From assembly GCA_951406725.2 (NCBI GenBank), contig OX597816.1, positions 181,474,001 to 181,538,000 on the forward strand: a DNA stretch of 64,000 nucleotides. Reading direction: 5' to 3'. Under the pieces are notes generated by a model. That model made no database searches. It saw only the letters and a list, made by a program, of their open reading frames with translations, and had not been told where the DNA came from. The DNA is from Octopus vulgaris (taxonomy: Eukaryota). The position numbers were made by a program, and so were the translations under genes. Of the stretch, positions 10,537 through 49,807 are shown piece by piece. How positions within the stretch are numbered: the first letter of the stretch is position 1; every line of letters begins with the position of its first letter.

Positions 10537-11776
10537 TTTCGGTTATTGAACTGCGGCTTGTCTCAGTCATGCTGGAAGTATTTTAGTCGAACTAATTGAC
10601 CCAGTATCTATTGATTTAATCCTGGTACTTAACTTATCGGTCTCTTTTGCTGAACTACTAAGTTTCTGGGACGTAAACGAGTCACCATATTTTGTCAAGT
10701 GGAGTGGTGGCAGATAAATACAAACACAAAGACTCACACACAGTTTCCGCTTATCAAATTCACTCACAAGCTATTCGTTGTGTATAATAGAGCATACTTA
10801 TCCAAGGTGTTGTGCAAGGGATCGAGCCCGAAACCAAGAGGTTTCAAAACGAGCTTTTTAACCACATAACTATACCTGCATCTGAAATTTTTGTAAATTT
10901 CATACAGAATCTACTTCGATACTTCACATTTCTGTGTTCCTATCCCCGGACAGGCGGCGGGGTGTTGGAATCCTTAGACCCCCGGGCCAAATGCTTAACT
11001 GTGTTTCTCCCGTCCGTTTGTTCTGAGTTCAAATTCCGCCTAGGCTGACTTTGCCTTTCATCCTTTCAGGGTCGTTAAAATATGTACAAGTTTAATACTG
11101 GGATTGATTACATCGACTTCACTACTTCTGGGTAAAAGCATACAAAAACTGCATCCCATTGTCAAGCCATGTTGAGCCAGTGTGGCAGAACAGGCTCATC
11201 AAAACAGTTATGACCCCAAGCTCAAATTCATGGCCATCGCATCAGACCGTGGTTGATGGAGAGGACATGCTGCGGCCCTTGCCCACTCCATTACTCAGAC
11301 AATATCCACCAAGTAGAAAAATGCTTCTTCTGAAACAGAAATCAATATGCAAAACAATTAGCAATTTGTACGATAACTAACCAAGCTAAAATTGTATTGA
11401 TGTAGGCATTTGAAATAGTATTAGATTAAAATACTGATGCGCATAGCATTTATAATGTAAATACTAACATGAAGGGCACTAGCTGTCTGGGTGTAATCGT
11501 CTCTGAGGAGGCGAAGTTAGGCTGGAACAACATCTCTGGCGAACTATCGATATTTTGAATGAGCCTTCTATTTTTAATTTACAAATCTTTGACAAGCTTC
11601 TCAATAACAAAATTTTACAATTACTGTTGTCCTACGTTTAAATATACTTTATAAATGTTATACGCATCGGCACACACACACACACACACACACAGACACA
11701 CACAGACACAGACACACACAAGCACACACAGACACACATATGTATATGTGTGTGTGTACTCATATATATATATATA

Positions 11777-12358
11777 TAATAGAAATATTAAAATTACTAA
11801 GTCTCTCTAAAAGAGAACAACGGCAGCGTTTCCGGAAAATAATAGTTATCGCCATACTAATATGGCATTCTTATAAAAATAAGAATAAAGCTGTCCGCTT
11901 ATTAGCTCCATGAGGCCATCGCCTTAAGTTAGCTATTTGATACACAAACTGTATCCATATAACCTTCGAATAAGAATGCCATATTAGTATGGCGATAACT
12001 ATTATTTTCCGGAAACGCTGCCGCTGTTCTCTTTTAGAGAGACTTAGTAATTTTAATATTTCTATTATTGAAAACAAGTGGATGTATTCCACCGAAGCTA
12101 GGTAAATAAAACCTTCGAACAGAGATTGTCAGAAGCGACACCTACTGGTCTGGCTACGCTACATTGAAAAGGGGCAATACCCCGAAACGCGTCTGTAGCT
12201 GCCGGTCAAGTAGTGTGGAGCGACTGACCTCCCTTGTTCGAAGGTTATATGGATACAGTTTGTGTATCAAATAGCTAACTTAAGGCGATGGCCTCATGGA
12301 GCTAATAAGCGGACAGCTTTATTCTTATTTTTATAAGAATGCCATATTAGTATGGCGA

Positions 12359-12366
<8 letters not shown>
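11777..12366. mobile_element. Retrozyme/Penelope-pLTR-like non-coding element: 363-nt unit plus inverted partial copy
   Basis: 11970-12003 recurs at 12333-12365 (period 363). 11777-11970 is the reverse complement of the unit read across its junction. One HHR per unit; (TA)n on both sides. Confidence 0.75.
12158..12199 (+). ncRNA. Minimal type I hammerhead ribozyme, U3-A8 core variant
   Basis: GCTACA | TTGAAAA | GGGG caata CCCC | GAAA CGCG TC | TGTAGC. Stems I and II are perfect, and the GUC cleavage triplet ends at 12193. Confidence 0.85.
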
Positions 12367-13407: not shown

Positions 13408-13635
13408 GCCCTTTTAAAGCCCGGTTTCCCGGTTTCAGTGGCGTGTTTGTCCCCCAGCTGGATGGGACGCCAGTCCATCGCAGCGTTACTCATTTTTGCC
13501 GGATGAGTGGACTGGGGCAGTGTGAAATGGAGTGCTTTGCTCAAGAGTACAACGCGTCACCCGGTCCAGGAATCGAAACCACAATCTTGCGATCATGATG
13601 CTGACACCCTAACCACTAAACCACGCGCCTCCACT
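13408..13635 (-). mobile_element. tRNA-derived SINE, family E
   Basis: Homologous to 25660-25905. A and B boxes on the minus strand (TGGTTTAGTGG; TTTCGATTCC). Confidence 0.8.
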
Positions 13636-24752: not shown

Positions 24753-25427
24753 AAGGATCTATTATATTGAAGGATCATAACTTGAAGATTTGTCACGACA
24801 AGACTGAATTCTTTCTCAACGAATTTAACTATAGTTAAGTAGTGAGAAAAAAGGAAGAAAGAGAGAAAGAAAGAGAGAGGGAGAGGGAGAAGGAGAGGTA
24901 GAGAGACAGAGAGAGGGAGAGGGAGAGATAGAGAGACAGAGAAAGATTAATTAAAATTATTGTTGTACCGAGGAGAGAAAAATAAAGGATCAATTACAAT
25001 GTTAATTAAATTTGGTGGAGGTAAAAATGTGATAACTCCAAAGTATTAATTGTTTAAAAGTATAATTATGTATGCAATGAGAAGACAGAAATATTAGTTG
25101 GGGGGTAATAAATAATATGATGTTGGCAATAACGGGAGCAATCCTGGACATGTTTTAGTTTTATTAGATTGTGTTAGTCTTTCCCAGTATGGGTCAGATA
25201 TTTATAGTGATAGACGATTACTATCCAGAGCAGGGCTTCTCCATCTTTTTTGCCCTGCGATGCGCTTCGATTTTTAAAAAATAAAAAACCCTGCGCCATA
25301 CCATCAATCAGACAAAGTTAGTATACAGTATATAGAATATACTTTTTCAATATCAGTGTCAATCGATACTGGAAAAAGTATATGTATTTGTGAAGGGAAC
25401 CGACTTCTCATCGACAACTATGATTGT

Positions 25428-25472
25428 CATACGCCGATGACGGGTCAATACCCTGAAACTCGAGTCCGTGTG
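25428..25472 (+). ncRNA. Minimal type I hammerhead (U4C core change) at the tip of a rod-like hairpin
   Basis: CATACG | CCGATGA c GGGT caat ACCC t | GAAA CTCGAG TC | CGTGTG. Flanks 25384-25399 pair with 25502-25517. Confidence 0.7.
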
Positions 25473-25659
25473 TATCATAAGTTGAAGACGGGAAGGATGG
25501 CTTCCCTTCGCAAATACTGATAGGGCACAGAAAGTGTGTCTATAGCCAGCTGGAGGAGGTGTCCTCCTGGGGCTACAAACTACAGTAACATCCACCCTTA
25601 GGGGTTAGCCATATTCAAATGGCAAATATACGTCACGATATATATATATATATATAGAC

Positions 25660-25905
25660 GCGCCCTTTTAAAGCCTAGCCAGGCTCATGGGCCCGGTTTC
25701 CCGGTTTCTATGGCGTATGTGTTCTCCAGCTGGACGGGATGCCAGTCCATCGCAGCGTTACTCACTTTTGCCAGCTGAGTGGACTGGAGCAACGTGAAAT
25801 GAAGTGTTTTGCTCAAGAACACAATGCATCACCCGGTCCAGGAATCGAAAGCACAATCTCACGATATTGATGCTGACACCCTAACCATTAAGCCACGCGC
25901 CTCCA
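25660..25905 (-). mobile_element. tRNA-derived SINE, family E
   Basis: tRNA-like head followed by a GTGTTCTTGAGCAA core shared with family D. Confidence 0.85.
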
Positions 25906-44546: not shown

Positions 44547-47500
44547 ACTTAGAATAACTTAGAAAGTGTTTGGCCAGTATTGGCCCAGGCCATGTCTAAC
44601 TTAATAGCACCACCAAGCGAAGTCTTTTAATTCAGTATTTGGGCACCAAGGCCCATTCAAGCAGAGAGTTATTGTTTGCGGAGACATATCCGGGTGTGGG
44701 TGGTTTGTCCGGTACTGTTTGAAGGAATTTGTCTAAAGACATCTTGAATTTTGTGTGGTCAGTTTCTGTTTTGACGTGTCCTGGTGTAATGTTGAAGAGA
44801 GCGGGTCCAATTGAGATGAAATAATTGTGCCGTATTGTTGTTATGAGATTTAGATTTTTGTTGTGGACGGATGGCACGTGGTCCAAGCCTTGGATGTATT
44901 TTGAAGGTGATGCCAACATCATTTGGACAGTGGTGATGGAATATTTTCCACATCATACAGATAATGTAGCGTTCACGGCGTCGTTGGAGTGAATACAGTT
45001 TCAGCTTTTCTAGTCGACCCCAGTAGTCGAGGTCTGACATGCCATCTATCATTTTTGTGATTGACCTTTGGGGAGCTTCAACTTTCATAATATTCCGTTT
45101 CGTGTAGGGAGACCACAATGGGCAGCAGTATTCAAGGTGGGGTCGGGCAAAAGTGGAGAAGAGAAGGATAACAGTGTGGGAATCTCTCGACTGGAAGGTT
45201 CTGAGAATCCAGGAACACATTCTGCGGGCCATGTCAACTTTGCTGCATATATGTGTAGCCCAGCTTATGTTGTTGTCCACGGTTACTCCCAAGTCTCTGA
45301 TGTTGTTGGACGCCATGAGAATTTCTCCAGAAGGAAGGGAGTATGGGAGTTTCAGAGCGTCCTCCCTTCCAAAGTGGATCAGTTCGAATTTGTCTTCGTT
45401 TAACAACGTGTTGTTCTTTTCCGCCCATTGGACAACAGCCAGTAGGTCTGACTGAAGGCTTATCCGATCATCCACGCCATTGATGACCTTCTGGAGCTTG
45501 GAATCATCAGTGAAGATTCTGATGTTACTGTGTTTGATCAAGTCAGTAATGTCATTAATGTAGATGATGAAGAGAAGTGGGCCCAACACAGTGCCTGGTG
45601 GGACACCACTACTGACTTTGGCTGGGCTGGATTTGACTCCTTCGACTTCAACATGTTGGGTTCTGTTAGACAGGAAGCACTTGATCTACTGCAGCAGCTT
45701 TCCAGTTACACCAATATTGGACAGCTTTCTCAGAAGGGATCAACCCTGTCAAAGGCCTTGCTGAAATCAAGGTAGATAACATCAGTGTTGGAACCCTCTC
45801 CCAAGACTCTCAAAATGTCATCAATATGATGCAGTAGCTGCGTCAGGCAATCCCTTCCATTACGGAATCCATGCTGGTTGGAGTTCAGCATATTATGACT
45901 CTCAAGGAAGTGAGTCATTCGCGATCTCACCACTCTCTCAAATACCTTAATGATATGAGAGGTGAGTGAGATTGGGCGGTAATTCACGGCAAGCGATTTG
46001 TTTCCTTTTTTGAAAACTGGGACAACAGACAGGGATAGAAGGTCTTCTGGTATATATCCAGCATCCAGTGAGTTCTGCCACAGATTGGCTAGAGGGGGTA
46101 CAAGTTGGTGTTGATACATCTTCAAGACACAAGCAGGGAACCTATCGGGACCTACTGCTGAATTATGCTTGATTCCTTTATTGCTGCTAAGACATCAGGG
46201 GCACTAAAGGTTATGTCCGATAAAGTATATTAAAGAGTAACATCACAGATACAGCCCAGATCAGTCATATCAGGATTGCTGAAAACAGAACAGTATTGTT
46301 TCTGCAGCATCTCTCTCATGGCTTTGGCATTGTCTTGAAGAGTACCATTTTCAACAATCAGAGGGCCAACAGCAGAACCAGTGACTCTGTGTTTTTTTGC
46401 AAATGAAAAGAACACTTTGGGGTTGAGTTTGATCTTCTCAATGGCCCTGGCCACTTCAGCTCTTCTCTGACTATTGATGATAGACATCATGTTGTTTTGG
46501 AGGTTATGTTTTTTAATCTCTAGTGACGTGATGGCAGTCAGGTTGGTGTGTTGCTGTTGACAGTATTTCAGCTTGTTGATTTTTTTGTTAGTTCTTTTAA
46601 TTTTCCTGATGAGAGTTTTTCTATTTCTAGGGATTCTGCACTTAGATTTGTTTGCAGATCTTAATGGGGGGTGTTTTGCACATATGTTCGTAATGGTGTC
46701 TACAAATGACTGCCAGGTCTTTCTGATGTTAGTGGGTGTGTATGTGTGCATGAAGGACCAATTGACTTGTGCAAGATCATTCCTGATCGCTTCCCAGTTT
46801 GCGTTGTGGAAATCCATAGTGTCAAATGGATGGACAGGAAGGATGACGTTTGTTTTGCATTTTGGCCGGTGAAATCTCAGATCACAGAGAACCATGTCAT
46901 GATCAGAGAGTAGAGTTTTCTCCACTGCAATATGGTGGATAGTGTCAGTATGATTGTTGAAAATTAAGTCTAGGACGTTTTTGTGACATCTCGTTGGTTC
47001 GAGCACCAGTTGGGACAGGAAGAAATCATCCATGAAGTCAAGATGCGATCCCACTGCCTCCCTGTCAGGGGTTGAGAGAGAAGAACCTGGCGGCAGGCTG
47101 TTTGTAGACCAGTCAACCCCGGGAAGGTTGAAGTCTCCCATCATTAAAATGTTGTCAGGTTGACACTGCTGAATAAAACATTTTATGCTGTTGAGGCATT
47201 CCTTGAAGCATGGTAGGGGCGTTTGGGGTGGTCTGTAGACCCCAACTACTATTAGGTTGTTGGTTTGACTGAATACAGCGACTGTTTCGCAGTATCCATT
47301 GGAAAATATGTTTATAGCTTCTGTTGAGAATGAATCATGAACATAAATGGCAGTCCCACCCTTTCTTCTGCCAGCACGATCAGCACGAATGGTTTTGAAA
47401 TTTTTAACTTTCACCTCGGCTTCCAAGTGGAGGTTACTAAGATGGGTTTCAGTGAGGACGAAGAAAGGGATGCGGTTTGGATGGGCATCGACCCAGTCCT

Positions 47501-47792
47501 CCAGGATTTTTATCTTCCATTTTTGAGTATTGCTGGGCATTAAGCAAAAATGTTGAGGCAAGAGTGGATGGTTTTAATTGTTTTGGTGTTTTGTTTACTT
47601 GTGTGCTTTTTAATGGCATGTGCAGTGGGGTGATAGTGGTGGATGGTGGTGGGTGATAGCTCGGATGTTTTTTCCAGTTCTTTTGCTAGATTCATTATAG
47701 CTAAAAAAGAGGAAGAAGTTTCCTGTCTAGGGAACTATAGGTGACTGTGGTTGTGGTTATTTCTATATGAGTGGTTATTTCTGTATGAATCA

Positions 47793-47861: not shown

Positions 47862-48411
47862 AGGTACATATGTATATATGTATATATATGTATACATATG
47901 TATATATGTATATATGTATATATATGTATATATATATGTATATGAGTCACATATGTATATATATGTATATATATATATATATATGCATATATATGTATAT
48001 GTATATATATGTATACATATATGTATATATATATAGGTATATATATGTATATAGATGTACGTATATATGTATATATACATATACACATACACACACACAC
48101 ATACACATATATATATGTATATATATATATGTGTGTGTAGAATCGTTAGCACGCCGGGCGAAATGCTTTGCGGTATTTCGTCCGCCGCTGCGTTCTGAGT
48201 TCAAATTCCGCCGAGGTCGACTTTGCCTTTCATCCTTTCGGGGTCGATAGATTAAGCATCAGTTGCGCACTGGGGTCGATGTAATCGACTTAATACCTAT
48301 GTCTGTCCTTGTTTGTCCCCTCTATGTTTAGCCCCTTGTGGGTAGTAAAGAAATATATATGTGTGTGTACATATATGTATATATGTATATATATATATGT
48401 CTATATATGTA

Positions 48412-48455
<44 letters not shown>

Positions 48456-48586
48456 ATACAGGTGGGCTGAGGACAACAACATGCAGTTTAACGCAGGTAA
48501 GTTCCAGGCCCTGCCCTACTGGCACACAAAGGTAAACGATATGCAGACTGGATACACTGGCCCGGGAAGAATTGCAATCCCCATGG

Positions 48587-49807
48587 TCTACAGGGTAGAC
48601 CATAATATCCTACTCTCAAAATTGGCAAATGTTGGAATCCATGGAAAAGTTCTACACTGGATTAAGTATTTCCTGGCGAATAGAACACAACATGTAGTTG
48701 ATGGAGTCCACTCAAGCCCAGCAAAAGTCACCAGCGGTGTCCCCCAGGGGACTGTCTTGGGTCCGCTACTCTTCATAATTTACATAAACGACCTTTCCAG
48801 TGTCGTACATTACTGCAAAGTGAAAATATTTGCTGATGACACTAAGCTCCAACAAATCGTCAATGAAGAAGCAGACCGAACTCAACTCCAGTCTGATCTA
48901 TATGCTGTGAGTCAATGGGCAGACAGAAACAAAATGCAACTGAACGAGGGAAAATTTGAGCTGATGCATTTTGGAAGAAATTCCTCACTAAAACAGCCAT
49001 ACTCTCTTCCTTCAGGGGAACCGCTCACAGCCTCTAACAATATCAGAGACCTGGGAGTAATTGTTGATGACGATCTCAGTTGGAGTGCACACATCAACAA
49101 GAAGGTCGATATAGCTCGTAGGATGAGTTCCTGGATCTTAAGAACTTTCCGGTCCAGAGAACAAGGTGTCATCATACCACTTTTCTCCTCCTTTGTACAG
49201 CCACACCTCGAATACTGCTGCCCACTGTGGTCTCCCCATACAAGACAAAACATATCGAGGATTGAATCACCCCAGAGAGCACTCACTAAACAAATTGAAG
49301 GCATGGCTGCTCTCGATTATTGGGATCGCCTTAAAGCCTTGAAACTCTACTCTCTCCAGCGTCGCCGTGAGCGGTACATCATTTGTACGATGTGGAGAAT
49401 ATACCGCCAACTTTGCCCAAACGACCTGAACATTAGCTTCAAGGTTCATCCAAGACTGGGACCACGGGCCATACGTCCCCTACCCAATTCAAGATCACAG
49501 CATACATGTACACTGCAACATAATTTCTTTTCCTCAACAGGCCCTGCCCTATTTAACATTGTCCCGAAAGAGATCAAAGAGAAAGAGGATCCCATCAACT
49601 TTAAACGGAGTCTGGATAGATTCCTTCAAGGAATACCAGATAAGCCACCCATAATTGGATACAACTCACCCAACAAGAACTCACTACTTGAATGGACCAT
49701 AAACAAAACTTGACTTAAACAGGATTCAAATAATCCTATCAGGTGGTGCTATTAAGTTAGACATGGCCTGGACCAATCTTTGGTCGAAACATATCTAAGT
49801 TTATCTA

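Follow-up and report, generated by a model that had tools for sequence, protein, structure and literature searches.

Metazoan non-LTR retrozymes, as the accessible part of their description presents them (Cervera and de la Pena 2020, PMC7229834), are non-coding tandem units of 150-450 bp (350-390 in the mussel) with one type I hammerhead per unit, a GC content below 50%, no LTR and a strongly self-paired circle, and Penelope-like elements (PLEs) are proposed there as their movers. The retrozymes of Li, Clavereau and Pollet (2026, 10.64898/2026.07.22.740005), whose descriptor covers canonical and minimal cores in the available text, co-occur with EN+ PLEs and are found as monomers, dimers and multimers, and many of their families match the pLTR, the PLE terminal repeat. 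A PLE link for retrozymes has already been proposed (PMC7229834; 10.64898/2026.07.22.740005). EN+ PLEs of the Neptune/Poseidon type, in the portions of the sources available (10.1101/2021.04.23.441226; PMC11167929; Cervera and de la Pena 2014, PMC4209133), have partial tandems, an inverted 5' arm, AT-rich or (TA)n targets and a 30-40-bp one-sided tail, and they carry a type I hammerhead with a palindromic helix III and a U3-A8 variant.

Here we describe an element at positions 25341..25639 (+ strand) of a 64-kb window, i.e. the whole stretch of Octopus vulgaris DNA analysed, which on its sequence is a metazoan non-LTR retrozyme as PMC7229834 defines the class. The unit from which it derives is 352 nt long and non-coding (longest ATG-started frame 57 codons), has a GC content of 44%, one type I hammerhead and no LTR, and its predicted circle is strongly self-paired, folding with a z of -5.8. 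The likeness to the retrozymes of Li et al. extends to unit length, to the co-occurrence with EN+ PLEs and to the presence of monomers, dimers and multimers; partial tandems, inverted 5' arms, (TA)n or AT-rich targets, a one-sided tail, the type I hammerhead, the palindromic helix III and the U3-A8 variant are shared with EN+ PLEs. The family differs from the metazoan retrozymes described in having C4 and a C.U mismatch in its core, and its expression and circles are putative; its dispersed insertions of one to a few units, with fixed twin 3' ends in TA runs, are not mentioned in the accessible part of PMC7229834. Whereas many families of Li et al. match the pLTR, those described here match none of the sampled PLE terminal repeats and are related via a 3' domain of their own, and unlike EN+ PLEs they have no ORF, a tail of 43 nt and a helix I extended into a rod of 130-144 nt. 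As far as its sequence can tell, the element is neither a canonical hammerhead nor an autonomous PLE. It is probably a shortened copy of a 352-nt tandem repeat that is young, encodes no protein and carries a variant hammerhead motif, and a PLE protein with reverse transcriptase (RT) and GIY-YIG domains likely put it into a TA run. What the locus adds, as read from the DNA, is that two elements of the window are homologous, that structure is conserved where sequence is not, that near-identical subfamilies carry canonical and damped cores, and that no family-wide trace of cleavage is present at insertion ends. No paper on retrozyme families of this sort in cephalopods was found in the literature searched.

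The limits of the element were set by homology to 30 fetched genomic loci: similarity to the window copy runs from 25341 to 25639, a fixed 3' end that we call E1, and is followed by a (TA)n run (25640..25656, +), the likely insertion target. The copy is a single arm of subfamily A1 that retains 299 nt of the unit and lacks 53 nt through 5' truncation; it is itself a partial monomer. Many of the fetched loci contain either an inverted arm or an additional unit in direct tandem, repeating every 352 nt; tandem copies, for which the first-pass annotation had suggested a search, are present elsewhere in the genome and not at this locus. The island of about 270 nt, beginning with TG and ending with CA, that had been taken for the element does not coincide with these limits or with the full unit; TG (25357) and CA (25624) are internal to the homologous stretch and were rejected as the ends of a solo LTR or LTR. 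Neither TG...CA termini nor a 4-bp TSD nor a type III hammerhead, as expected of an LTR element or plant LTR retrozyme, was found at this locus. A search of the species' own genome (2.8 Gb, 227 contigs) returned 2,670 first-look candidates; among the 40 that were scored there were full-length matches of 97-100% identity on many contigs. Median identity among copies is 97% in A1, the subfamily with C4 and C.U, and 98% in the subfamily with a canonical core.

The neighbourhood holds other repeats. Window positions 25657-25900, directly after the TA run, belong to a different interspersed repeat, which matches 13419-13628 at 87% as well as other places in the window. Broken frames at 44759-47573 (-) and 48349-49713 (+) are, by motif, what we take to be look-alikes of a LINE endonuclease and reverse transcriptase.

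The hammerhead motif lies at 25428..25472 (+) and, with numbering and consensus from the available part of PMC3088659, has the type I layout noted in the first-pass annotation, including a C at position 4 and a predicted cut after 25466. Helix I (25428-25433 with 25467-25472, 6 bp) leads into the core strand CCGAUGA (25434-25440, C4 at 25435), a helix II with loop 2 of 14 nt (25441-25454), the GAAA strand (25455-25458) and a palindromic helix III of 8 nt (25458..25465), which would form 2 bp in the monomer and a predicted 8 bp in a dimer; the cut is predicted directly after C17 at 25466. The core agrees with the consensus C3 U4 G5 A6 N7 G8 A9 / G12 A13 A14 A15 U16 H17 at all positions but 4, and there is a second departure, absent from the earlier annotation, in that C.U replaces the pair at 10.1/11.1. 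Helix I is prolonged into a predicted rod (25384..25517, ~46 bp including helix I), in which the pairings reported earlier are present: 25384-25399 pairs with 25502-25517 with one G.U, and 25415-25424 pairs with 25474-25484 with one bulged A. The spans given for this rod (134 nt) and for that of an element some 12 kb into the window (12110-12246, 137 nt) are likewise correct. The 268-nt stretch folds with -103.7 kcal/mol against -71.7 for shuffles (z -6.9), and 0 of 200 shuffles folded as well. Rfam returned no hammerhead family for the element up to E 10, and no hammerhead was among the matches listed for the 64-kb window (150 of 209); the assignment as a ribozyme is therefore based on the motif and on its relatives. 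The miRNA matches of Rfam in the window were rejected as microsatellites.

The first-pass annotation left undecided whether the U4C change was decay or a family variant. Near-identical copies carry C4 (34 of 34 aligned copies at 28 top-scoring loci, a sample biased to close copies), and the change is therefore inherited as a subfamily variant rather than the result of decay. Searches with exact core patterns carrying U at 11.1 gave 135 C4 and 8 U4 matches and none for the controls; as C4 lies in a CpG, the 8 U4 matches may have arisen afterwards by C-to-T change. Patterns with a base other than U at 11.1 gave 92 C4 matches, nearly all of them C.A, and 547 U4 matches, and of the 100 U4 matches listed 88 belong to a sister subfamily that is ~90% identical to the C4 + C.U subfamily and has a fully canonical core with G10.1-C11.1. 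The 92 C4 matches all lack that pair. Among 42 cores from a sample whose anchor lay 3' of the ribozyme, 26 were C4 and 16 U4, and strict coupling of C4 to a 10.1/11.1 mismatch was rejected by the existence of a U4 + U.U subfamily (13 of the 42). The core states found are thus canonical, C4 + C.U, C4 + C.A, C4 + U.U and U4 + U.U, in subfamilies that are ~90% identical and each of which has spread; by sequence comparison, C4 multiplied together with the element that carries it, and different core states expanded concurrently. The subfamily tree has 2 of 45 branches starred, too few to order the core changes or to tell a reversion in the canonical sister. On a tree of the 3' domain, position 4 must have changed at least twice; C4 is present in both of the groups that a fully supported branch separates, in three lineages of 352-360 nt and in an autonomous PLE. 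In the accessible part of PMC3088659, U4C is a viroid variant that lowers activity considerably in vitro and allows infection, U10.1-U11.1 and U3-A8 are natural hammerhead variants, and U4C and U10.1-U11.1 are each found in natural ribozymes with reduced but usable activity. In the literature searched we found no transposon subfamily in which C4 is fixed throughout in combination with C.U, C.A or U.U, although Lunse et al. 2017, on PLE hammerhead variants, may cover it.

Helix II has nearly the same sequence in the distant A and C/F lineages (L155:1086-1340, L243:213-470; L140, L212), the canonical form occurring in A2 and F and the U.U form in an A subfamily and C/C2; this would be explained either by parallel change or by exchange of ribozyme modules. 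Separately, near-perfect fold-back elements (L101, L125, L134) contain a string, CCGA...GAAAC, that resembles a hammerhead but lacks the type I arrangement.

The element at 12 kb (11776..12365, strand unassigned) is a two-armed copy of a second young family, B, with a unit of 363 nt, a forward arm at ~11970-12365, an inverted arm at ~11776-11974 and a U3-A8 core at 12164-12170, and it folds beyond chance (z -6.5). It had been described as having no evident sequence identity to the element at 25341..25639. This holds for the rod arms (z 0.6 for the 5' arm, 2.3 for the 3' arm) but not for the 3' domains, which are colinear with 60% identity (z 8.3, 0 of 300 shuffles). Whole-unit alignments of the 352-nt, 363-nt and 360-nt families are also colinear and above shuffles (z 7.9, 12.1 and 6.0), and on this sequence evidence the two window elements are distant homologues. 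The architecture seen as conserved across families is indeed conserved, and it extends further than proposed, to the rod, the ribozyme, three hairpins of the 3' domain and both 3' ends; its source is shared ancestry, however, and the families are not unrelated.

The order of parts is common to 12 subfamily representatives, one copy each, hand-picked from loci already retrieved. Conservation of the rod among relatives was named as a point to check, and 11 of the 12 fold a rod of 129-144 nt (35-46 bp); subfamily H, represented by one worn copy, gave no rod fold. When arms were swapped between representatives, pairing within groups reached -44 to -62 kcal/mol and pairing across groups was poor, e.g. 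-24.6 for the 5' arm of the present element with the 3' arm of the 12-kb element against -55.3 with its own; the cognate arm was the best partner in 8 of 12 rows, the misses being H and three within close sister groups. Both rod arms must therefore have changed together. MAFFT left the outer rod unaligned, so that RNAalifold gives no consensus there and the arm-swap test was used instead; elsewhere RNAalifold returned 35 consensus pairs, located in helix I with its extension, in helix II and in the 3' hairpins, and both partners have changed in 20 of them. A6, A9, GAAA, U16.1 and C17 are invariant in 12 of 12 representatives, rod arms fall to ~50% identity, and helix III is palindromic in 10 of 12. 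In the 3' domain, hairpin 1 (25523..25541, +) is kept with paired changes across the 12 subfamilies, a stem with an inner hairpin follows (25543..25575, +), the motif of its 3' strand being conserved in the superfamily, and the terminal hairpin (25608..25623, +), 140-148 nt from the cut site, has a stem that is invariant in all 12. We infer that the shared architecture was inherited and held by selection on RNA structure. The terminal hairpin probably contributes to the recognition signal for the reverse transcriptase. Because core residues stay invariant while rod arms diverge, and because of the two-sided changes in helices I and II and the helix III palindromes, the ribozyme itself appears to be kept under selection.

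Insertion ends were examined in 119 arms from 76 loci, 40 of which have two or more arms. The 3' ends fall at E1 in 53 arms and at a second site, E2, ~43 nt further on, in another 53, the remaining 13 lying elsewhere; TA-rich sequence follows 68 of the 106 E1/E2 ends. In 39 back-to-back insertions, 32 combine E1 with E2, one combines E1 with E1 and six have an unclassed end, so that where both ends are classed 32 of 33 are mixed (p 8e-9); in a previous sample of 58 loci, some of them shared with this one, 24 of 25 were mixed. The 5' ends, by comparison, are spread over the whole unit, with 5' truncation, partial tandems and inverted 5' arms. These are the features of a PLE-type insertion, together with a one-sided tail and an AT-rich or (TA)n target. 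The available text of Craig et al. (2021, 10.1101/2021.04.23.441226) describes a tail on one side and inverted arms for PLE insertions, and that of Frangieh et al. (2024, PMC11167929) explains this layout by in vitro results in which the RT starts at two internal sites and both strands of the DNA are cleaved and then extended.

We propose that tandem source arrays would be transcribed and that the hammerhead would cut slowly, probably as a dimer via the palindromic helix III, to give 352-nt units that may be circularised. A Penelope protein would bind the conserved 3' hairpin domain and nick both strands of a TA run; reverse transcription would start at the two internal sites E1 and E2, would proceed across the ribozyme either along an uncut multimer or around a circle, and would stop early to give truncated copies. 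The window copy could not yield unit-length RNA by itself, because it has a single E1 arm, one ribozyme and 53 nt missing. Against this scheme stand the 13 of 119 arms that end elsewhere and the lack of any match between a profile of the superfamily and the PLE terminal repeats in 47 loci, which leaves the mobilising element a putative one.

None of the 119 arms starts at the cut site (unit position 127) and the six that start within 5 nt are close to the local background; a genome-wide search for 5' ends at the cut site yielded 13 candidates, all point changes of C17, and junctions that rebuild helix I could escape that search, though not the alignment-based count of arms. Because arms read through the cut site and none starts there, the template is taken to be an uncut multimer or a circle. 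An alternative that we consider unlikely, though it survives better than the others, keeps the same element and the same Penelope-type insertion and makes the ribozyme, with C4 and C.U, an inactive passenger, uncut read-through transcripts of tandem arrays serving as template and no circle being formed. It is supported by the lack of 5' ends at the cut site, the parallel spread of several core states and the considerably lowered in vitro activity of U4C; it also agrees with the accessible results of Frangieh et al. 2024 (PMC11167929), where HHR mutants left in vitro insertion by a purified PLE unchanged and uncut RNA was the main substrate, and of Li et al. (10.64898/2026.07.22.740005), where 8 of 9 Xenopus retrozyme dimers were not cleaved in vitro. 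However, the other core residues are fixed over ~50% divergence, and random decay would not favour the recurrence of C4 across a fully supported branch, three lineages and an autonomous PLE. The fixed residues, the helix III palindromes and the C4 recurrence speak, as sequence features, for activity; two weakening core changes present together speak against it, as does the unconstrained fold, in which the core is predicted to pair with the cleavage site. On balance we place cleavage by the C4/C.U core slightly above even chances, and a circularised unit somewhat below them. Contigs of runs guessed to be RNA (none on record as RNA) cover the unit, and neither strand nor circles are readable from them.

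The genome contains young elements with RT followed by GIY-YIG. One autonomous PLE-like element (L130, G000:C1:27840600-27850400) is an intact-looking tandem with a 4,271-bp unit, in which a 454-aa frame of no Pfam family precedes a 775-aa RT/GIY-YIG frame; its RT match (E 8e-7, 29.5 bits) is just under the curated cut-off of 29.6, and GIY-YIG follows. In the young RT/GIY-YIG elements a cysteine motif precedes the endonuclease, which by sequence would agree with what the available part of Craig et al. (10.1101/2021.04.23.441226) describes for Neptune/Nematis. The element with the 4,271-bp unit has a hammerhead with C4 and U.U, and two 3' ends ~30 nt apart, both into TA, with one of each in the 2 two-armed loci seen. 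The superfamily profile showed no homology to PLE terminal repeats in 47 loci, four matches being neighbouring insertions, and it is for this reason that the helper is deduced from the footprint.

These comparisons also bear on the suggestion that the unit is only the pLTR of an unsampled autonomous PLE, its copies being 5'-truncated stubs. In the accessible text of Li et al. (10.64898/2026.07.22.740005) 21 of 57 Xenopus retrozyme families match PLEs, and PLE stubs have the same footprint in that of Craig et al. (10.1101/2021.04.23.441226); sampling is moreover incomplete, with 150 of 6,136 GIY-YIG candidates scored. Yet the unit holds no RT or GIY-YIG ORF and has no pLTR homology across the 47 loci, what lies upstream of units in the loci examined is another unit, an inverted arm or flank, and arrays of 9 units, longer in sister families, hold no ORF; we therefore think this improbable. 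Lastly, that the element is a TG...CA solo LTR, a MITE or a satellite that multiplied as DNA and resembles a hammerhead by chance can practically be dismissed, for although TG and CA do occur and tandem arrays exist, both dinucleotides are internal, 5' ends are random while 3' ends are fixed, and a sister subfamily has a perfectly canonical core.

Retrozyme copies adjoin PLE insertions in 4 of the 47 PLE loci (L079, L092, L095, L096, L196), and one of them abuts a PLE tail across a TA run, i.e. targets are shared.

A bolder, rather doubtful extension of the retrozyme reading is that these repeats, rather than being trimmed terminal repeats, form an ancient, independent lineage of RNAs that have the size of viroids and parasitise Penelope elements. 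Selection would act on the folded RNA, with its ribozyme rod of 130-144 nt and, 140-148 nt from the cut, a 3' domain for docking. The core would have alternated repeatedly between the canonical form and damped ones (C4, mismatched 10.1/11.1, U3-A8, U3.G8); cutting of multimers would in this way take place in dimers, and the unit circle would last long enough to be copied from two starts.

The family is of use beyond this locus in several ways. Subfamilies ~90% identical with differing cores constitute a natural experiment on the need for hammerhead cutting in Penelope-type transposition, cutting being dispensable in vitro for one PLE (available part of PMC11167929). The conserved 3' hairpin domain and two fixed ends make the unit a compact template that could be put directly into the in vitro PLE assay already available. 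Finally, counts of animal retrozymes may be too low, because cores of the C4/C.U type fail both the canonical consensus and Rfam.

Parts of the 3' domain also occur outside retrozymes. A search for the terminal hairpin gave 18,616 matches, a number that does not represent copies of the element, as 10 of 30 loci read belong to another repeat with the 3' part only. This abundant repeat (L213, L214, L215, L220, L229, L236, L238-L241, around 1501) carries a ~60-nt piece of the retrozyme 3' part, terminal hairpin included, and in the same 10 of 30 loci it ends in a GC hairpin followed by CTAG, which we take to be a Helitron-type 3' end and hence an apparent capture of a retrozyme fragment. At another locus (L248:586-1300) a tandem array with a 119-nt period combines terminal hairpin, tail and TA run but has no ribozyme, i.e. 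the 3' piece alone has been reiterated.
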